Positions 1-7,046 of a stretch of DNA of 7,046 nt are shown piece after piece (the stretch's first letter is position 1; each line of letters opens with the position of its first letter). Origin of the DNA: a virus (Duplodnaviria; Heunggongvirae; Uroviricota; Caudoviricetes); IMG/VR virus record IMGVR_UViG_2609459803_000005; one strand, written 5' to 3'. Both the position numbers and the translations under genes were made by a program. The notes under the pieces were generated by a model, which was not told the origin of the DNA, searched no databases, and saw nothing but the letters and a program-made list of their open reading frames with translations.

Positions 1-537
1 ATGGAACCCCTTCGTGAAATAAGAAATCGGCTGCTTAACGGCTGGCAATTATCAAAAATGCATACTTTTGAAGTGGCTGCCAGGCATCAGTCCTTCGCCC
101 TGGCGGCAGAGGAATTGTCGCTGAGCCCCAGTGCGGTAAGTCACCGTATCAATCAGCTGGAAGAAGAATTGGGCATTCAGTTGTTTGTTCGTTCCCATCG
201 CAAAGTGGAATTAACGCACGAGGGGAAACGTGTTTATTGGGCGCTAAAATCGTCGCTGGATACCCTGAACCAGGAAATTCTTGATATCAAAAATCAGGAG
301 TTATCGGGAACGTTAACTCTGTATTCCCGGCCCTCTATCGCCCAATGCTGGTTGGTGCCCGCATTAGGTGACTTTACACGCCGGTATCTAACAGTAAAAG
401 CCGCCGGGGTATGGGCGGGGGGCATTGAAACACCTTCGGTGGAAACTCCATCGGAAGGCTCTAAATTTTTTGGTTTTGACATGGATAACGAATTCATCAG
501 TGGTTTTGATGTAGGGGCATGGGGAGTATTACTCTGA
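1..537 (+). pseudogene. dsdC: LysR-family transcriptional regulator, dsdC-like (D-serine deaminase activator), N-terminal HTH domain retained, 3' part replaced by unrelated sequence
   Basis: The first ~130 codons carry a classic LysR helix-turn-helix signature (FEVAARHQSFALAAEELSLSPSAVSHRINQLEEELGIQLFVRSHRKVELTHEGKRVY) and match my recollection of E. coli DsdC. After about nt 390-410 the translation (LTVKAAGVWAGGIETPSVETPSEGSKFF...) no longer looks like a LysR co-inducer domain, and the frame stops at 537, whereas LysR regulators are about 300 aa. Symbol assigned from memory. Confidence 0.7.
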
Positions 538-1340
538 TGGCGAAAAATGACTTTAAAGCGTTTGCAACTGATCGAAATGCCAATGTTATGTCGCAGGAGG
601 AATGGGAAGCGTTGCCTGCGCTTATATCCGGATTTACAGCAGGGAAAGCATCCAGTGCGCAAGTCAATAAGGTTATTCGGCAGGCCAGCTTTATTGCTGC
701 AGCTCTGGCCCAGTTTGTAAGTGATAAAACGCAACGGGATGTGCTTGATAATGGTGATCTGCCCGGTTTTGTTGAATTGCTGGGATCGGGGTTTGCTGTT
801 GAATACCTGAGCCGCAAGAATCCGTTTGGTGATATCAAATCGGATGGCACGGTGAAAACAGCTCTCGAAAACCTTGGTTTGGGAGAAGGCTCTGCATTAC
901 CGGTTGGTGTGCCTGTTCCGTGGCCTTCAGCTACACCACCGACAGGCTGGTTGAAATGCAATGGTGCAGCTTTTTCTGCTGAAGAATACCCGGAGCTGGC
1001 AAAGGCTTACCCGACAAATAAATTGCCTGATTTACGTGGTGAGTTTATTCGTGGCTGGGATGATGGGCGTGGAGTGGACAGTGGGCGAGCGTTATTGAGT
1101 GCTCAGAGCGATACGCTGCAAAATATTACAGGTAGCTTTTTGGATATGACCACGGGGCCAAATAATAATACTGTCGGCGCATTTACCTCTTCAACATTGA
1201 CACCAAATCTCGCATCAATTGCGACAGGTGGTACATATAAACAGGCGAATTATTATTTTGATGCATCACGTGTTGCCAGAACATCAACGGAAACACGTGC
1301 GCGAAATATTGCATTTAACTTTATCGTGAGGGCTGCATAA
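519..1340 (+). CDS. Phage tail-fibre protein, C-terminal portion only (5'-truncated remnant: short constant part to ~nt 873 plus variable receptor-binding segment)
   Basis: Tail-fibre C-terminal (collar-type) motif string [54 protein letters not shown]. The same frame has stops at 486-488 and 507-509, so the N-terminal bulk of a normal fibre gene is missing and the ATG at 519 may be fortuitous. The stop overlaps the next gene's start (TAATG at 1338-1342). Confidence 0.8.
862..887. repeat. Left crossover site of the invertible segment (gix/pix-like; internal dyad AAACC-TT-GGTTT)
   Basis: 15 bp TTGGTTTGGGAGAAG at 874-888 is repeated exactly in inverted orientation at 2739-2753. The flanks also partly match (TCGAAAACC versus TCATAAACG in the reverse complement). 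The AAACC-NN-GGTTT layout is as I recall for Gin-family crossover sites. It lies in the codons for LGLGE of the fibre gene. Confidence 0.6.
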
Positions 1341-1942
1341 TGGATAACGCTGTATTAAATAGCGAGCTTATTGCCACGAAGGCGGGGAATATTACCGTCT
1401 ATAGCTATGATGGTGAAACTCGGGAATATATTTCCACTTCAAATGAATATCTTGCCGTTGGTGTTGGTATCCCGGCATATTCCTGTCTGGATGAACCTGG
1501 TATACATAAGGCTGGTTATGCAATCTGCCGTTCGGCAGATTTAAACTCATGGGAATATGTGCCAGACCATCGCGGTGAAATCGTCTATAACACCGAAACG
1601 GGAGACGCCAAAGAAATCACAACTCCGGGTGATTACCCCGAAAATACAACCACTATCGCCCCGTTAACGCCATACGATAAATGGGATGGTGAGAAATGGG
1701 TGACAGACACTGAGGCACAACACAGTGCCGCAGTAGACGCGGCAGAAGCACAGCGCCAGTCACTGATTGATGCAGCAATGGCTTCCATTAGTCTGATTCA
1801 GCTGAAATTACAGGCCGGGCGGAAACTGACGCAGGCAGAAACAACCCGACTTAACGTCGTGCTGGATTACATTGACGCGGTGACGGCAACAGATACCAGC
1901 ACCGCGCCTGATGTCATCTGGCCTGAGCTGCCGGAGGCGTAG
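1340..1942 (+). CDS. Tail-fibre assembly protein (Tfa/U-like chaperone)
   Basis: 200-aa ORF whose start is translationally coupled to the fibre gene (TAATG), with a GTGAGGG Shine-Dalgarno 7 nt upstream. Size and position are typical of Tfa, and the C-terminus carries DTSTAPDVIWP, a motif shared with the convergent second assembly gene. Confidence 0.85.
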   Translation: MDNAVLNSELIATKAGNITVYSYDGETREYISTSNEYLAVGVGIPAYSCLDEPGIHKAGYAICRSADLNSWEYVPDHRGEIVYNTETGDAKEITTPGDYPENTTTIAPLTPYDKWDGEKWVTDTEAQHSAAVDAAEAQRQSLIDAAMASISLIQLKLQAGRKLTQAETTRLNVVLDYIDAVTATDTSTAPDVIWPELPEA

Positions 1943-2357
1943 GCCATTCAATATCGGGTGCTGTTGACGTATCAACACGCATCAGCAGCACACGGTATTT
2001 CTTCCATTGGGTGAGAGTTGAAGTTTCTTCATCAGTTGCGATACCAGCATCAACAGCATCCTGACGCCAGGATATTTCACTGTCAGCTTTTGCACGAAAT
2101 GTGGCTTTCATGTTTTCTGCATCTGATATTTTCTGTTCTGGTGAAAGCGGCGGCTCATCAACCCATGCAAGGGTCCCTGAAACCATTCCCAGCATTTTTC
2201 CTGTTGGCTTATTTCCCCCATTAAATCTGACAGCATCCTCATCGCTGATTTCAATACCATCCTGCGGCCATGTCCCCTCCTTGATATAACTTTCATATAG
2301 CGCTGCGTTGTAGATTGCATTTTCGGACGGGCTGTAAACACTTTTAACTTTATTCAT
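1914..2357 (-). CDS. Alternative tail-fibre assembly protein (U'-like), convergent with the first
   Basis: 147-aa ORF with a GGGAGA Shine-Dalgarno 7 nt before its ATG (2357..2355). It sits directly downstream of the minus-strand alternative fibre segment, whose stop TAA (2364..2362) lies between that Shine-Dalgarno and the ATG. C-terminal DTSTAPDIEWP motif. Its 3' end overlaps the plus-strand assembly gene by 29 bp. Confidence 0.8.
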   Translation of the reverse strand: MNKVKSVYSPSENAIYNAALYESYIKEGTWPQDGIEISDEDAVRFNGGNKPTGKMLGMVSGTLAWVDEPPLSPEQKISDAENMKATFRAKADSEISWRQDAVDAGIATDEETSTLTQWKKYRVLLMRVDTSTAPDIEWPTPPAAQAR

Positions 2358-2361
2358 TCTG

Positions 2362-2748
2362 TTATCTCCCTTTCGCTATATAGCAAAGATTAAACCCACC
2401 GGCGCCTGACATACGGGCTGTAAAACCCGTTCTTGAAGTACCAGTTGAGTTAACTCCATAAGCAGGCATGGTTGCTGGAGAAAGCAGAGACTCCTGGATA
2501 TCTGCCATTGTCAGTGTAATTGATTCGACCCGCGCGGGGAAAGGTAGCGGGAAAACAACATTCGTCCCTGTCTGTCCAACGGGGAAACCGAAAATACCCC
2601 ATTGTGTAATTACCCCATCCGGCCCCTTACTCCATCCAGATTTAGGAATCGGCCAGTCTGCTGCTCCAGAGTGCCCCGTTGTAAAACTACTCATATCTGG
2701 TACTTGCCCGGTATCCGTTCCGACGTTCCTCGTTGCCGCTTCTCCCAA
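2362..2748 (-). CDS. Alternative tail-fibre C-terminal variable segment (Sv'-like), silent in this orientation, expressed only after inversion
   Basis: Minus-strand ORF 2362..2793. Residues 15-18 (GLGE) are encoded by the inverted copy of the crossover repeat, so inversion would fuse the upstream fibre remnant (...ENLGLGE) in frame to this segment. The ORF's first ~14 codons lie outside the invertible segment and are probably not coding. Confidence 0.65.
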   Translation of the reverse strand: MGEAATRNVGTDTGQVPDMSSFTTGHSGAADWPIPKSGWSKGPDGVITQWGIFGFPVGQTGTNVVFPLPFPARVESITLTMADIQESLLSPATMPAYGVNSTGTSRTGFTARMSGAGGFNLCYIAKGR

Positions 2749-2765
2749 ACCAACGTTTATGAAAA
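2740..2765. repeat. Right crossover site of the invertible segment (inverted relative to the left site; internal dyad AAACC-AA-CGTTT)
   Basis: CTTCTCCCAAACCAA at 2739-2753 is the exact reverse complement of 874-888. It lies 55-80 bp upstream of the invertase start, the usual arrangement in Gin/Cin/Pin systems. Confidence 0.6.
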
Positions 2766-2819
2766 TGCAGAAATAACGATCAAATGGCATCATTCCTGCT
2801 TTTGTCAGGGAGATCTACC

Positions 2820-3374
2820 ATGCTTATTGGCTATGTACGTGTGTCAACAAATGACCAGAACACAGATCTACAACGTAATGCGCTGAACTGTGCAGGATGC
2901 GAGCTTATTTTTGAAGACAAGATAAGCGGTACAAAGTCCGAAAGGCCGGGACTGAAAAAACTGCTCAGGACATTATCGGCAGGTGACACTCTGGTCGTCT
3001 GGAAGCTGGATCGGCTGGGGCGTAGTATGCGGCATCTTGTCGTGCTGGTGGAGGAGTTGCGCGAACGAGGCATCAACTTTCGTAGTCTGACGGATTCAAT
3101 TGATACCAGCACACCAATGGGACGCTTTTTCTTTCATGTGATGGGTGCCCTGGCTGAAATGGAGCGTGAACTGATTGTTGAACGAACAAAAGTTGGACTG
3201 GAAGCTGCTCGCGCACAGGGACGAATTGGTGGACGTCGCCCCAAACTTACACCAGAACAATGGGAGCAGGCCGGACGATTAATTGCAGCAGGAATTCCTC
3301 GCCAGAAGGTAGCGATCATCTATGATATTGGTGTATCGACTTTGTATAAGAGGTTTCCAGCCAGGATTATATAA
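2820..3374 (+). CDS. Serine recombinase, DNA invertase of the Gin/Pin/Cin/Hin family
   Basis: N-terminus MLIGYVRVSTNDQNTDLQRNAL carries the catalytic-serine motif (YVRVST), followed by DRLGRS and a C-terminal HTH, in a protein of about 185 aa. GGGAGA Shine-Dalgarno 6 nt upstream of the ATG at 2820. The ORF-track start at 2784 is an in-frame upstream extension without a ribosome-binding site. Closely resembles e14 Pin as I remember it. Confidence 0.92.
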   Translation: MLIGYVRVSTNDQNTDLQRNALNCAGCELIFEDKISGTKSERPGLKKLLRTLSAGDTLVVWKLDRLGRSMRHLVVLVEELRERGINFRSLTDSIDTSTPMGRFFFHVMGALAEMERELIVERTKVGLEAARAQGRIGGRRPKLTPEQWEQAGRLIAAGIPRQKVAIIYDIGVSTLYKRFPARII

Positions 3375-3411
3375 AACCGCAGACACGCCGTATGCAAGAC
3401 GTGCTGCGGTT
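3375..3411 (+). terminator. Stem-loop immediately after the invertase stop codon (possible terminator or RNA-stability element; no U-tract)
   Basis: AACCGCAGACACG ... CGTG-CTGCGGTT forms a stem of about 12-13 bp with one bulge, starting 1 nt after the TAA. No T-run follows, so intrinsic termination is doubtful. Confidence 0.25.
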
Positions 3412-3570
3412 GGCTGATGCACTTTCGAGAGTGTATGTATTGAATTATTTCCAGCCGTTACTGATTTTACGTATTTTTTGTATGAGAGGAGTTGCACCAC
3501 CTCTTAAGCATAATTTGTTAGAATCATGGCAGCACAATAGCCATATATCCAATATAAAATACTTAACCTT

Positions 3571-4470
3571 CTAATCATTATGGAGTATTTGATCGCCGTA
3601 TGGCCAGCCATTTTCCCCAGGAAGGGTCATACCTAACATTGGCATAATACTAAGTTGTCCAATGGTAAATCCTAGAGCACTTGTATTACTGATTCCGGCA
3701 TAGGTCATATCAAGGGGGTTAGACTCTGAGCTGGACATAAAAAGATTTCTTGTGCCAATTCTATTCGCCATTGAGAACTGAATATGCCCACCAATTGTAT
3801 TTACGGTGTCCTGAGATATCCAGTTGTTTAACGCGATAAATGGCGCCCGCCACCAGTTAAGCGTGCCATTCTCAAAACGCCCCCTCGTCATCTCAATATC
3901 TTCCCGAAACTGCTGCTTTCTGTCTCCCAAGACTACCGGGGTACCTGTTGTCAGGTCAAGGCAGTCCTCAATTACAAGATTAGTGGGGTTTGATGGGGTG
4001 TTGTAGATCTTAATGATTTTATGTACCTGTGTTCTGAAACAGAATCCGTAAATAATCATCTCCGTTGCTACAGAACGGGGAAAAAACTGGCCAATATCCA
4101 GTATAAATTTTTCCGCGATTCCCTTTGTTAAAACTGCAATTTCATAAAGACTCGGGTAACTATCATAAGTCAACTCCGGCTGCTGAACATCATAATAATT
4201 AACTTCATGTAATGAAGATAATGATACGGCAAGTAACTCCTTCACATTTATACCGATCATTGTTCCTCCTGCAAAGCCGAAACCAAACTCCATAATTTTT
4301 TCCGGAGATAGACGGTATATGTCATTGGAGCGAATAACTGATACCGGAATCGAGAATAGTTTAGGACAGTGATTTGTCATTACACTTTCATGCTGGGTGA
4401 TTCTTGAGTCGCTTACGGCCCAGATACTTTCCCCTTCTTCCCTGTTTAGCCAGCAGGCTATTGCTGTCAT
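3571..4470 (-). CDS. Hypothetical protein, 299 aa, unknown function (possible Ntn-hydrolase/HslV-like N-terminal region, unverified)
   Basis: Long minus-strand ORF (track 3571..4608). I place the start at the ATG at 4470 because it has a strong AAGGGGG Shine-Dalgarno 6 nt upstream. This gives MTAIACWLNREEGESIWAVSDSRIT... I recognise no family with certainty. Confidence 0.7.
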   Translation of the reverse strand: MTAIACWLNREEGESIWAVSDSRITQHESVMTNHCPKLFSIPVSVIRSNDIYRLSPEKIMEFGFGFAGGTMIGINVKELLAVSLSSLHEVNYYDVQQPELTYDSYPSLYEIAVLTKGIAEKFILDIGQFFPRSVATEMIIYGFCFRTQVHKIIKIYNTPSNPTNLVIEDCLDLTTGTPVVLGDRKQQFREDIEMTRGRFENGTLNWWRAPFIALNNWISQDTVNTIGGHIQFSMANRIGTRNLFMSSSESNPLDMTYAGISNTSALGFTIGQLSIMPMLGMTLPGENGWPYGDQILHND

Positions 4471-4872
4471 TGAAAACCCCCTTTTAAGTAAAAAAATCAG
4501 ATTCAGATAGTGCATACATAATTTAGTCAAGTCATCTCTTTTAAGACGCATTGAGAAATGGTTGCTCAAGGTGCGCCAGTGAACGCGCACGAAAATAACT
4601 TCTTGCATTTCCCATTACACTCTGACTTTAGGGCCGCGTTAGATTTTAACATGGTGGCCGTGCATCCATTTAAATTGGTAATCTGGAGAATGAGTAACGC
4701 TGAATAGATTAACAATCTATGCGACTAACGGCCCTTAAAAGCGCAGCTCATAACATCGAATTTTACCAGTTTAGTCATTTTTAAAAAGTGCCCGAAAAAT
4801 GTTGTCCACGATTTGTGCTCTACGTCCCATCTTGACCTACTCCCTGATAATTCACTCAGAAGGCGGTTAGCA

Positions 4873-4900
4873 ATGTCCGTTAAGTGCTCACAACGGACAT
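4873..4900. promoter_or_regulatory. Perfect 9-bp inverted repeat (ATGTCCGTT-N10-AACGGACAT) inside the cargo-cassette spacer; candidate operator or RNA hairpin
   Basis: Directly visible dyad symmetry. It lies between the two cargo genes, inside the questionable 78-aa ORF. Confidence 0.3.
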
Positions 4901-4951
4901 TCAGCCCACTAAATCCGACCGTGTCGCTCAATATGCGGACAGGTTGTAGTG

Positions 4952-5554
4952 CTAACTGCATTGTAGCTGTGAGATTTCACCATCGATGGCTTCTATAACC
5001 TGTTTATAGCGGAGCATGACCTCATCATGAATCATCATTAATCCGCGGCCGTACTCTGTGGCTAGGATTGTGTATCTTTTCAGGTGTGCAAGATGTTCTT
5101 TGTTGCCAGTAATGTCACTTGCAACCTGCGTGGAGTCCAGCCGTTCGATAAGCGCATTATTGCCGCGATAGGAATCAATTAGGCTTCTTGCGCTTGTATA
5201 AAAAGCCACAATTTTTGAGAGTGTTTCTCTATGAACTTCAGGTAGGGATGCCGAGTTGGCTTCATAGAACGTGAAGTAGTTTTGAGTAATGGGGAAAATG
5301 TTATCGAACGGTGAGTTCCGGTCGTATTTTTCGATTTCTTCTGCCATTCTGGCCTGATACAGTTTAATCAGTGAGTCTATTTCCTCTCTGACACCCAATA
5401 GCGTTGTTATACGCTTCTCTCTGGCCGCTGTTGCCTGCTGTTTTGCCTGCTGTTTCACCTGAGTTGTCACTCCTATCATCGTGAAACAGCCACCTAAAAG
5501 AGCTGCTAAAAATGCGGAGATGAGATCTGAATATTCGTGCCAGAAGGTTAGCAT
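4952..5554 (-). CDS. Hypothetical membrane-anchored protein, 200 aa (one N-terminal hydrophobic helix, then a charged, probably helical domain)
   Basis: Minus-strand ORF whose N-terminus has a hydrophobic stretch (LISAFLAALLGGCFTMIGV), followed by a K/Q/E/R-rich segment. No convincing Shine-Dalgarno before the first ATG (5554). An alternative internal start at 5479 has an AGGTGG upstream but would remove part of the hydrophobic helix, so the start is uncertain. Confidence 0.65.
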   Translation of the reverse strand: MLTFWHEYSDLISAFLAALLGGCFTMIGVTTQVKQQAKQQATAAREKRITTLLGVREEIDSLIKLYQARMAEEIEKYDRNSPFDNIFPITQNYFTFYEANSASLPEVHRETLSKIVAFYTSARSLIDSYRGNNALIERLDSTQVASDITGNKEHLAHLKRYTILATEYGRGLMMIHDEVMLRYKQVIEAIDGEISQLQCS

Positions 5555-5565
5555 GGCGAAAATTC

Positions 5566-5588
5566 CATTGGGTTAAATTATGTCTATT
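5566..5588. promoter_or_regulatory. Perfect palindrome GGTTAAAT-N7-ATTTAACC 12 bp upstream of the first cargo gene; candidate operator overlapping a -10-like hexamer (CATAAT on the minus strand, 5572-5577)
   Basis: Exact 8-bp inverted repeat read from the sequence. AT-rich, so more likely a protein-binding site than a stable hairpin. Confidence 0.3.
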
Positions 5589-5888
5589 TAACCACATAAT
5601 GATACGAAGATACCTTCCAAAATGTTGCTATGACCCCATCTGTTGTTGCCTGGCTGGTGACGTGTCTGGGTATTAGCACCGTGCTCTCTCATTATCTAAG
5701 TCTGGGCCAATCCTCGTTCATAACAGGCATTCACTTCAGTCATGGCAGAAAGGTATGCATGCTGGAGAAGTCATGAAAGAAAAGAAGACTTCTGCCTCGT
5801 TTGTCATCACTGTTATCTTCTCATTGATTATGCAGGTCATAGTGGGGACACACAAAGCTTTGTACTATCCGATAGTGGTTAAGGTGGA

Positions 5889-7046
5889 TCACTCCACCTT
5901 TTCATCAAGCCAATCCGCCCACCACTGCATCATTTCTCTGCGCTTATCGAGATACTGAGCATGGTTGTAAATACCGCGCACAGATCCGCCGTTGGCATGT
6001 GCCAGTTGCACTTCAATAGCGTCAGCAGGCCATTCGTGCTCGTTCATAATCGTGCTGAATTCATGCCTGAATCCGTGACCGCTTTCCAGACCCTCATAGC
6101 CGATTTGTTTGATCACAAGTAGCACCGCGTTCTCGCAAATTGGCTTCTTCTTATCGTTGCGCCCGGAAAAAACAAACTCTGATACTGGTTTAGTGATTGA
6201 GCTTAGTGTAGTGAGAAGTTCAACCACCTGGTCTGACATCGGGACCACATGAATTTTGCGTCCCTTCATTACACTGGCGTCGATGGTGATAATCCTGTTT
6301 TCAAAATCGACGTTCTTCCATAGCATGGAGCGAAGCTCTTTCGTTCTTAGGGCTGTGTAGCGCAAAACTTTAGTCGCAATGAGCGATACGATACTTCCTG
6401 AAAATGTTGCCAGTGCTTTATTGAATGCCGGGATCTGGTCTGCAGGAAGAAACGGGAAGTTTTTCTTGCGGTATCCCTTCATGGCGTCAGCAAGGTCAGG
6501 TGCCGGGTTATATTTAGCCCTACCAGTGACAATAGCGTAACGGAAAACCTCGCCGCATCTTCTGCGGGCTTTATTTGCTCGCTCCATTGCACCGCGATCT
6601 TCAAATCTGCGGATTACTTCCAGCAGTTGCATCGGCTCAATCTCCTGAATTTCAAGGCCGCCGATGATAGGTAAAATGTCGTCATCAAACATTTTTGCAA
6701 GTTCAGTCGCATACCCTACTGACCATACTTGCTTCTTGTGCTCGTACCATTCCTTGTAAATCGCACTAAATGAATTGTTGTTAGACGAAGCCTTTTTCGC
6801 CTTTACCGGATCGATGCCAACCGAGATGTCTTTCCTCGCAGTCCATGCCTTATCCCTTGCTTCCTGCAAAGTCATAAGCGGATATTTTCCGACGGTCAGG
6901 ATTTTCTCCTTACCGTCAATCTTGTAGCGAAGCTGCCATACCTTTTTCCCGGATACAGGAACATAAAGGTACAGGCCATTACCATCGAGAAGGCGGTATG
7001 GTTTTTCTTTCGGCTTTGCTGCTTCAATCTGCTTAACGGTGAGCAT
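5889..7046 (-). CDS. intS: Tyrosine recombinase, P4-type prophage integrase (IntS-like, CPS-53/KpLE1 family)
   Basis: Complete 385-aa ORF. Tyrosine-recombinase catalytic residues are visible near the C-terminus (HGFRHEFST with H-x-x-R, and VRGIYNHAQY with the catalytic Tyr). The start codon is the last triplet of the window, so the expected tRNA attachment site lies outside it. Symbol inferred from the dsdC-proximal context and my memory of K-12 IntS. Confidence 0.88.
   Translation of the reverse strand: MLTVKQIEAAKPKEKPYRLLDGNGLYLYVPVSGKKVWQLRYKIDGKEKILTVGKYPLMTLQEARDKAWTARKDISVGIDPVKAKKASSNNNSFSAIYKEWYEHKKQVWSVGYATELAKMFDDDILPIIGGLEIQEIEPMQLLEVIRRFEDRGAMERANKARRRCGEVFRYAIVTGRAKYNPAPDLADAMKGYRKKNFPFLPADQIPAFNKALATFSGSIVSLIATKVLRYTALRTKELRSMLWKNVDFENRIITIDASVMKGRKIHVVPMSDQVVELLTTLSSITKPVSEFVFSGRNDKKKPICENAVLLVIKQIGYEGLESGHGFRHEFSTIMNEHEWPADAIEVQLAHANGGSVRGIYNHAQYLDKRREMMQWWADWLDEKVE

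Follow-up and report, generated by a model that had tools for sequence, protein, structure and literature searches.

The DNA analyzed here is a 7,046-nt prophage remnant of Escherichia coli (IMG/VR record IMGVR_UViG_2609459803_000005; this whole stretch is called the window below), in which two genes, orfA and orfB, lie between pin, a serine-invertase gene, and int, a tyrosine-integrase gene. We found that this cargo is mobile, rare, composite, and modestly AT-shifted. The pin–int interval appears to be accessory cargo at the integrase-proximal end of an argW-integrated, contractile-tail prophage remnant, put together from two independently mobile single-gene modules that each carry their own upstream region, and we consider this overall picture somewhat better than evenly supported. 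The content of the cargo is of more interest than its composition, as orfA represents an unannotated family of predicted proteasome-fold hydrolases linked to defense islands and to CBASS (antiphage signaling systems based on cyclic oligonucleotides).

Multiple comparisons support separate horizontal acquisition, which a first-pass annotation of the window had proposed from base composition. First, positions 3377–5866 (from 3 nt past the pin stop codon to 23 nt before the int stop codon) recur with 99.0% identity in a lambdoid prophage unrelated to this one. In EC5502 and four other genomes, this copy forms the very end of the prophage, adjoining torT and preceded by a tail-fiber assembly gene. 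Plasmid pSM107_MCR also carries this block, and neither the EC5502-type prophage nor the plasmid showed similarity to the window beyond 3377 and 5866. Second, a screen of 5,426 complete E. coli genomes found at least 80% of the interval in only 7, with 1,403 matching parts of pin or int. Third, occupancy between the conserved backbone genes is variable: a related argW/intS prophage in strain TL20 has at the same site orfB together with part of an IS3 element and a 445-aa gene of no relation to orfA. The annotation had taken a single cassette at 3571–5554 as the acquired unit. The unit is instead the whole pin–int interval, and it is not one cassette but two independently assorting single-gene modules juxtaposed at ~4835–4905.

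The orfA family and its genomic settings

OrfA matched no Pfam (E ≤ 0.01), PADLOC, NCBIfam, or PHROG model; PADLOC-DB v2.0.0, which dates from 2023, served as the library of defense models. The family is sizeable, yet has no Pfam model, annotation, or literature: a profile search of 1.84 billion representatives collected 865 clusters (50% identity) at E ≤ 0.001, of which 115 reached E ≤ 1e-30; almost all are 265–300 aa long. An AlphaFold2 (AF2) model of OrfA, with a predicted local distance difference test score (pLDDT) of 84 and a predicted template-modeling score (pTM) of 0.86, gave 258 Foldseek matches in the PDB at E ≤ 0.001, headed by 20S beta subunits (E = 2.5e-8, probability 1.0). The top matches were bacterial, archaeal, and eukaryotic proteasome beta subunits, with template-modeling scores on the target of 0.6–0.72, and phage HslV/proteasome-like proteins were matched among viral structures (BFVD). 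From this model, we confidently predict that OrfA has the four-layer alpha-beta-beta-alpha fold of the proteasome.

Conserved residues point in the same direction. Across 96 sequences of 20–60% identity, D21, K37, G182, P210, G227, and G228 were invariant, and M1, T2, W7, W17, G63, G68, P106, G142, C144, and G271 were conserved in at least 90%. The M1–T2 pair was invariant in 26 close homologs, providing an N-terminal threonine at the level of sequence, and D21 and K37 are spaced 16 residues apart, like Asp17 and Lys33 beside Thr1 in HslV and the 20S beta subunits. When the family was aligned to E. coli HslV, the sole local hhalign match paired D21 with Asp17 and K37 with Lys33, but neither this match (E = 0.16) nor the alignment as a whole was significant. 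In the proposed mechanism, methionine aminopeptidase would remove Met1 to expose the threonine as an N-terminal nucleophile, and Asp21 and Lys37 would complete an active site of the proteasome/HslV type. Judged from the model and these residues, OrfA is probably an active N-terminal-threonine hydrolase with ~75 extra C-terminal residues.

The position of the orfA start bears on this assignment. A longer reading from ATG 4608 (3571–4608) encodes 345 aa, the length given by RefSeq for WP_233337191.1 and WP_248785139.1; other RefSeq entries have 299 aa. We take the product to be 299 aa because homologs of 275–306 aa begin with Met-Thr and because a Shine-Dalgarno-like sequence precedes ATG 4470. 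Sequence comparison therefore suggests that the 345-aa start is probably an over-extension error, and this annotation would bury the putative nucleophile.

We gathered ~24 distinct genomic contexts of the orfA family, none of which was a housekeeping setting. Within Enterobacterales and Vibrionaceae, mobile elements carry the gene by itself. In E. coli, the gene occupies the pin/int end described here and a lambdoid-prophage end. A homolog in a Providencia P2-like prophage lies between ogr copies and gpD, a P2-type hotspot; one in a Serratia lambdoid prophage is flanked by a PDC-S33 (RelA/SpoT) gene on one side and by cI, the repressor gene, on the other; and one in a Citrobacter integrative and conjugative element (ICE) follows traC. 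Other homologs reside in islands with DarTG, Mrr-type nucleases, and integrases, and relatives adjoin Borvo (Cupriavidus) or SIR2, Mrr, OLD, and TIR genes (metagenome). The family is thus embedded in defense-rich accessory regions, and it is often attached to CBASS, with CBASS genes within 6 kb of an orfA relative in 9 of the ~24 contexts.

Several of these attachments are close. On the same strand, an orfA-like gene follows a SMODS/AGS_C cyclase gene by 60 nt in Burkholderia sp. LMG 32019 and by ~320 nt in Pseudomonas (locus L018), and follows a patatin gene plus a SMODS/AGS_C cyclase gene by 22 nt in Massilia (L054). In Herminiimonas (L020), the distance downstream of a SMODS/AGS_C cyclase is 1.6 kb. 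On a Vibrio conjugative plasmid (L057), an orfA-like gene lies 61 nt before a CD-NTase gene and a gene for an effector with two transmembrane helices, and at a metagenomic locus one directly follows capH-capP. The adjoining cyclases match distinct PADLOC models (PDLC00793, 00796, 00824, and 00801), and the linkage is therefore not a single arrangement passed down by descent.

The Burkholderia CBASS array (L017, 1695–7867) is unusually dense, with a cyclase plus E2, a cyclase plus an effector with four transmembrane helices, and an AGS_C cyclase plus the orfA-like gene in tandem, so that the orfA-like gene takes the effector position of the third operon. More distant relatives (26–29% identity, 276 aa) occur in high-GC IMG/VR phage contigs (L044, 2552–3975; L045, 4977–5807). 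In L044, a 196-aa helix-turn-helix (HTH) gene, HigA/Xre-like by sequence, ends 3 nt before the orfA relative, which hints at a regulator-plus-hydrolase pair in that clade. A distant paralog (P0058 cluster; 291 aa, ~32% identity) is found in many more E. coli assemblies and in Enterobacter and Atlantibacter, and one member of this cluster is present on 107 contigs. Broad alignments of the family were too divergent for seeding locus searches.

In our preferred reading, when a phage infects, OrfA would cleave a peptide or amide bond, with the target belonging to either the host or the phage. It would act autonomously in enterobacterial elements; in other Proteobacteria, its relatives may answer to cyclic-nucleotide (CBASS) signaling, either serving as effectors or processing the cyclase. 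We lean slightly toward a defense role for orfA. A genuine functional tie to CBASS we consider possible rather than probable, and we offer only tentatively the wider proposal that orfA belongs to a new class of immune effector or accessory protein, a proteasome-fold threonine hydrolase repeatedly recruited to CBASS (especially to AGS-C cyclases) and also serving as an autonomous single-gene defense that moves about on prophages, ICEs, and plasmids of enterobacteria.

A number of observations weigh against this reading. Neither orfA nor orfB was found by tblastn in 50,697 sequenced phage genomes, neither matches a PADLOC model, and a cyclase or recognized defense gene is absent both from the window and from the 12 kb to each side of it in strain NADC1036. 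Literature searches returned no experiment or paper tying the orfA family to defense, their sole relevant find being a survey of proteasome homologs (Fuchs, Alva and Lupas 2021; PMC8665760), and the ~24 contexts are a small, non-random sample. As for the enzyme itself, the best of 96 relatives reached the Pfam Proteasome family (PF00227) at E = 0.08, which is noise, and a sequence-profile search of the PDB gave chance matches. OrfA is therefore filed as a proteasome-fold homolog rather than as a member of PF00227, and its catalytic assignment stands on the predicted fold plus conserved residues. Finally, a promoter and terminator consensus scan found no more sites than in shuffled sequence and does not support independent transcription.

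A more specific explanation is that orfA is a dedicated CBASS component, serving either as effector or as an accessory protease whose substrate is the cyclase, especially of the AGS-C type. The E. coli copy would then be an orphan, which either connects to a CBASS at another place in the host or has turned autonomous. The same-strand spacing of 22–320 nt in Burkholderia, Pseudomonas, and Massilia, the placements in Herminiimonas, the Vibrio plasmid, and the capH-capP locus, the diversity of the cyclases, and the effector position in the third Burkholderia operon are all consistent with this explanation. However, about 15 of the 24 contexts have no CBASS gene in 6–7 kb, including all E. coli copies, the P2 hotspot, the ICE, and the DarTG and Borvo neighbors, and the Massilia, Herminiimonas, and Vibrio loci and locus L026 already possess a complete CBASS that has an effector of its own. 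Moreover, CBASS is among the commonest residents of defense islands, and some adjacency is expected by chance. A SAVED, STING, Cap15-type, or other cyclic-nucleotide-sensing module was detected neither in OrfA and 96 relatives with Pfam nor in OrfA with PADLOC; the C-terminal 75 residues of OrfA may hold a novel sensor. Literature searches found no proteasome-like protein in the described CBASS types. On balance, a dedicated CBASS role is a doubtful alternative.

If orfA does encode a defense effector or CBASS accessory, then hydrolysis by a threonine nucleophile would be an enzymatic principle not yet seen in bacterial immunity. A function would be assigned to one orphan bacterial proteasome homolog. 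Proteasome-type enzymes would gain their first member with a part in anti-phage immunity, and cyclic-nucleotide signaling possibly a new mode of regulation or execution. The E. coli copy would then be a compact and easily testable single-gene system.

Two modules and their junction

Each half of the cargo recurs elsewhere without the other. Together with ~370–420 nt of upstream sequence (window 3586–4838), orfA showed 79.5% DNA identity to a Pantoea prophage segment that lacks orfB, and a search for a hidden orfB upstream of the Pantoea orfA found none. A metagenomic contig of enterobacterial origin matches the orfA module as far as ~4890, again with no orfB, and orfA without orfB is found in Pantoea, Serratia, Providencia, the Citrobacter ICE, and others. 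Conversely, orfB and its own flanks (4906–5658) were 89% identical to a Serratia chromosomal island, in which an unrelated 261-aa gene and then a Septu system follow. We asked whether this 261-aa gene is a diverged orfA and rejected the idea (BLASTP E = 0.44). OrfB also occurs after umuC in a Cronobacter-type prophage, after parAB on a plasmid-like contig, and, truncated and beside an HNH gene, in E. coli PSS-04. Copies that are 96–98% identical lie on 34 non-mobilizable plasmids of ~106–122 kb in Enterobacter, Citrobacter, and Salmonella, which may be phage-plasmids. One of the orfB plasmids, pG6809-1, is of IncFIB type and also encodes a phage N-6-adenine methyltransferase.

The pair itself was seen in E. 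coli only; elsewhere each gene occurs without the other, and co-occurrence is thus not conserved. A 10-bp hairpin sits where the homology breakpoints of both modules meet (~4835–4905). It has no T-run after it; its role could be that of a weak terminator or a processing site, or it may be the scar of a recombination. The orfA leader is probably non-coding and is not conserved in the clade of 58–60% identity. No Rfam family and no promoter match above chance was found in it. A conserved RNA or small open reading frame (ORF) in the leader was considered and rejected, as conservation is confined to the closest relatives and a 49-aa ORF shows less conservation in its protein than in its DNA. Scans of a 78-aa ORF (4725–4961) with Pfam, NCBIfam, PHROGs, and PADLOC gave nothing usable.

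These results bear on the idea that orfB and orfA make up one functional two-gene system, such as an operon for a membrane sensor or anchor and a protease, or a toxin-antitoxin pair, and were acquired together in one cassette. The two genes share a strand, they have moved as a pair, with two different E. coli prophages and a plasmid having both at 99% identity, and no terminator consensus lies between them. Nevertheless, 481 nt and the hairpin separate them, orfA homologs of 45–80% identity stand alone, and orfB homologs of 85–97% identity either have no partner or are accompanied by an unrelated gene of 261 aa, by one of 445 aa, or by one of 163 aa together with an HNH gene. Given also the meeting of the module breakpoints at the junction and the restriction of the pair to E. 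coli, we consider a two-gene system improbable and favor two independently mobile modules.

The OrfB family is tiny: 26 clusters among 5.8 billion proteins, all enterobacterial and none with a Pfam domain, and OrfB is 85–96% identical in Serratia, Cronobacter, and Dickeya. A K/Q/R-rich stretch follows the N-terminal hydrophobic helix (LISAFLAALLGGCFTMIGV), and the AF2 model is all-helical (pLDDT 75). Foldseek of this model against the PDB gave nothing at E ≤ 0.001 and generic helical bundles at E > 0.03, and scans with Pfam, NCBIfam, PHROGs, and PADLOC gave nothing usable. PADLOC matches to ZorB (E ~0.002–0.006) cover the transmembrane helix alone and are at chance level, and an identity as ZorB was rejected. 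The sequence and model suggest that OrfB is a small membrane-anchored accessory protein of mobile elements, a classification by kind only. It would act separately from OrfA, as a membrane exclusion or abortive-infection factor.

Carriage by prophages, an ICE, and conjugative plasmids could also mean that orfA works for the mobile element and against its host, perhaps as an anti-defense protease clearing host immune proteins (CBASS components, for instance) that have been conjugated or activated. Phages do encode small proteasome/HslV homologs, as seen in the viral Foldseek matches and in a published survey (Fuchs, Alva and Lupas 2021; PMC8665760), and orfA relatives are repeatedly near CBASS. 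An inhibitor would be unlikely, however, to reside inside or right after chromosomal CBASS operons on the same strand, as orfA-like genes do in Massilia, Burkholderia, and Pseudomonas. The absence of orfA from the sequenced phage genomes and its presence at typical positions of prophage defense cargo (the P2 hotspot and beside cI) also argue against this role, which we regard as very unlikely.

Base composition of the cargo

The first-pass annotation had described the cassette at 3571–5554 as AT-richer than the flanking tail-fiber and integrase genes. The direction of this claim was borne out, but its size was overstated and its extent slightly misplaced. The three hand counts of 60-base stretches behind it were exact (58.3% GC for 901–960, 33.3% for 4081–4140, and 38.3% for 5281–5340), yet these stretches are extremes rather than typical of their regions, as 60-base windows have a standard deviation (SD) of 6–7 points and range from 25 to 67%. 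The tail-fiber gene as a whole (519–1340) has 47.1% GC rather than ~58%, and the true contrast is 4–6 points instead of ~20. The cassette at 42.9% GC is the minimum of the window, compared with 47.6% for the left flank (1–3570) and 46.4% for the right flank (5555–7046; chi-square p = 0.001). The sliding-window comparison that the annotation had suggested thus revealed a significant, modest dip. The best segmentation with two change points gave 3421–5630 on a 10-nt grid and 3301–5900 on a 50-nt grid, the latter with scan-corrected p values of 0.008 (first-order Markov null) and 0.03 (300-nt block shuffle). These limits indicate that the AT-rich unit is the whole interval from the pin stop codon to the int stop codon (42.6% GC, compared with 48.1% for 1–3374 and 47.4% for int), which is wider than the cassette as first drawn.

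At the level of genes, the two lowest GC values among the nine are those of orfA (42.3%) and orfB (44.4%), which fall short of the seven flanking genes by 4.9 and 3.1 SD. Codon usage, the other suggested check, did not separate the cassette from its flanks. GC at third codon positions (GC3) was 0.42 and 0.46 for the cargo and 0.38 for the tail-fiber gene, 0.38 for tfa, 0.44 for pin, and 0.52 for int; a pseudo-codon adaptation index against seven neighboring host genes was 0.53–0.56 for the cargo and likewise for pin and int. The cargo deficit is located at codon positions 1 and 2. With GC3 inside the flank range, amino-acid composition contributes to the AT shift, a point that counts against the accessory-cargo reading.

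The contrast is wider against the full prophage of strain NADC1036, where GC is 55.8% in structural genes (GC3 0.56–0.66), 48.9% in the invertible segment plus pin, 42.6% in the cargo, and 47.4% in int. The cargo therefore deviates from the backbone (42.6% versus 55.8% in structural genes and 47–49% in the immediate flanks), modestly and, relative to the immediate flanks, not in GC3, and these flanks in the window are AT-shifted mosaic modules themselves; 300-nt windows of the tail-fiber region dip to 42.7% GC. In 17 of 18 loci, members of the orfA family exceeded the surrounding DNA in AT content, with a mean difference of 7.9 points, in hosts of 39–67% GC (sign test p = 1.4e-4). The AT shift is thus a property of the orfA family and not of this particular insertion. 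AT-richness would be the usual signature of fast-moving accessory genes, and the compositional observation is ordinary, as AT-shifted accessory cargo at prophage ends is well known. Taken alone, the compositional argument for acquisition is weak, at 4–6 points and with no distinction in GC3, and the comparative evidence carries the conclusion. The yfdF gene in the host flank of the NADC1036 prophage (L001, 18222–19280) has 35.1% GC and a GC3 of 0.30, far below the prophage cargo, and the chromosomal neighborhood of argW is compositionally patchy too.

Least probable of the alternatives is that the AT shift says nothing about origin, reflecting amino-acid composition and gene scatter within an AT-shifted mosaic end, and that the two ORFs are neutral or decaying hitch-hikers: the GC3 values and codon-position pattern, the low-GC tail-fiber windows, a block-shuffle p of only 0.03, and the location in a deleted prophage remnant with a regulator–tail-fiber fusion would fit, but both ORFs are intact and conserved across genera (orfB at 85–96%; orfA in 865 clusters with invariant catalytic-type residues), the AT bias recurs in 17 of 18 loci, and the comparative data prove independent mobility.

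Prophage setting and comparison with known systems

The right-hand 4.3 kb of the window is 99.98% identical in strain NADC1036, in which a complete contractile-tail prophage is integrated at a tRNA-Arg gene beside yfdC; the intS-type integrase gene adjoins this tRNA-Arg gene (argW) in the full genome. The features of the window are collected in the table below.

Features of the 7,046-nt window, with the cargo interval and its flanking genes listed first
Feature	Position	Strand	Remarks
AT-rich accessory-cargo interval	3375–5888	.	pin stop codon to int stop codon; defined by composition, change points, and recurrence elsewhere
orfA	3571–4470	-	299 aa; candidate proteasome beta-subunit-like N-terminal-nucleophile hydrolase; start ATG 4470 (MTAIACW...)
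Shine-Dalgarno-like AAGGGGG	4477–4483	-	6 nt upstream of orfA ATG 4470; AAAGGRG in close homologs
orfA upstream leader	4471–4890	-	travels with orfA in closest relatives
Hairpin	4872–4901	.	perfect 10-bp inverted repeat with 10-nt loop, AATGTCCGTT...AACGGACATT; ~50 nt past orfB stop, at module junction
orfB	4952–5554	-	200 aa, orphan family; N-terminal hydrophobic helix at ~residues 11–29, then all-helical body
orfB upstream region	5555–5888	-	abuts int 3' end; mobile block ends at 5866, Serratia similarity reaches 5658
pin-type serine invertase gene	2784–3374	+	left backbone flank of cargo; Pfam Resolvase (7e-51) plus HTH_7; pinE in NADC1036 annotation
intS-type tyrosine integrase gene	5889–7046	-	right backbone flank of cargo; Pfam Phage_integrase, Phage_int_M, Arm-DNA-bind_3; NADC1036 annotation
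Pin-type invertible tail-fiber segment	869–2758		bounded by 20-nt inverted repeats, 869–888 AAACCTTGGTTTGGGAGAAG and 2739–2758 CTTCTCCCAAACCAACGTTT
Truncated LysR-type regulator ORF	1–537		intact HTH_1; substrate domain cut after ~residue 130
Tail-fiber gene	519–1340		Collar domain
Tail-fiber assembly gene	1340–1942	+	opposed to second assembly gene
Tail-fiber assembly gene	1914–2357	-	opposed to first assembly gene
Alternative tail-fiber C-terminal exon	2362–2793	-	

Compared with IMG/VR record UViG_2619619133_000005, the window differs by an inversion of 889–2738 and by one base. This base, 5896, is the sole mismatch outside the invertible segment; it lies near the 3' end of int and alters 1 of 385 residues. 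The invertible segment is in the orientation opposite to that in both UViG_2619619133_000005 and NADC1036, so both orientations exist among near-identical sequences. Inversion exchanges the fiber C-terminus (889–1340 versus 2362–2738) together with its assembly gene. A sub-threshold Rfam match to IS009 lies at 1963–2152 (minus strand) in the overlapping tail-fiber-assembly genes (47 bits versus a gathering score of 117, E = 1e-8). RefSeq starts pin at a methionine matching position 2820. At the left end, the truncated LysR-type ORF, putatively dsdC, runs into the tail-fiber region and overlaps the start of the fiber ORF at 519. It looks like the product of a deletion that joined a host regulator gene to the middle of the prophage, with loss of most of the prophage; NADC1036 has the full prophage in place of this fusion.

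The pin–int interval resembles the moron sites and cargo hotspots of other prophages, such as old/tin and Z/fun in P2, rexAB beside cI in lambda, and gtrABS beside intS in the CPS-53 prophage of E. coli K-12. As at those sites, variable AT-shifted cargo is wedged between backbone genes at a prophage end, related prophages hold different occupants, and orfA homologs are found at P2-type ogr/gpD and cI-adjacent positions. The occupants described here, by contrast, belong to no described defense or lysogenic-conversion family, and the host prophage is a deletion remnant. OrfB invites comparison with single-pass membrane proteins of prophages that act in exclusion or abortive infection, such as SieA/SieB of P22 and gp15 of HK97. 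Like these proteins, it is small with an N-terminal transmembrane helix and is encoded at prophage ends; it also occurs on plasmids and, in Serratia, near Septu. It has no sequence or fold similarity to them, and the resemblance is of kind only.

OrfA shares with proteasome beta subunits and HslV (MEROPS T1, PF00227) its predicted fold, a threonine right after Met1 without a propeptide, as in E. coli HslV, and an invariant aspartate and lysine that have the 16-residue spacing of Asp17 and Lys33 and may be their equivalents. It differs in having the additional C-terminal residues (~225–299), in the lack of an adjacent AAA+ unfoldase, in its accessory and defense-island setting rather than a housekeeping one, and in giving no significant profile match to PF00227 or to a PDB chain. 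A catalog of 22 uncharacterized proteasome homologs includes PPH, RPC, and DPH (Fuchs, Alva and Lupas 2021; PMC8665760). In that catalog, RPC and DPH are restricted to proteobacteria (group I), RPC has an unassigned C-terminal extension, and PPH and RPC lack H2. Its representatives of RPC (WP_140207863) and DPH (WP_074989469.1) did not occur among those members of the orfA clusters that were read. Compared by description, the orfA family is likewise found mainly in Proteobacteria and their mobile elements, and orfA may be one of these homologs, such as RPC or DPH; the presence of both H1 and H2 in the OrfA model argues weakly against an identity with RPC. Relative to CBASS, the window has no cyclase gene, OrfA has no recognized nucleotide sensor, and most contexts of the family have no CBASS; the likeness lies in gene order, with orfA relatives in or beside CBASS operons in 9 of ~24 contexts, several of them at operon-like distance.

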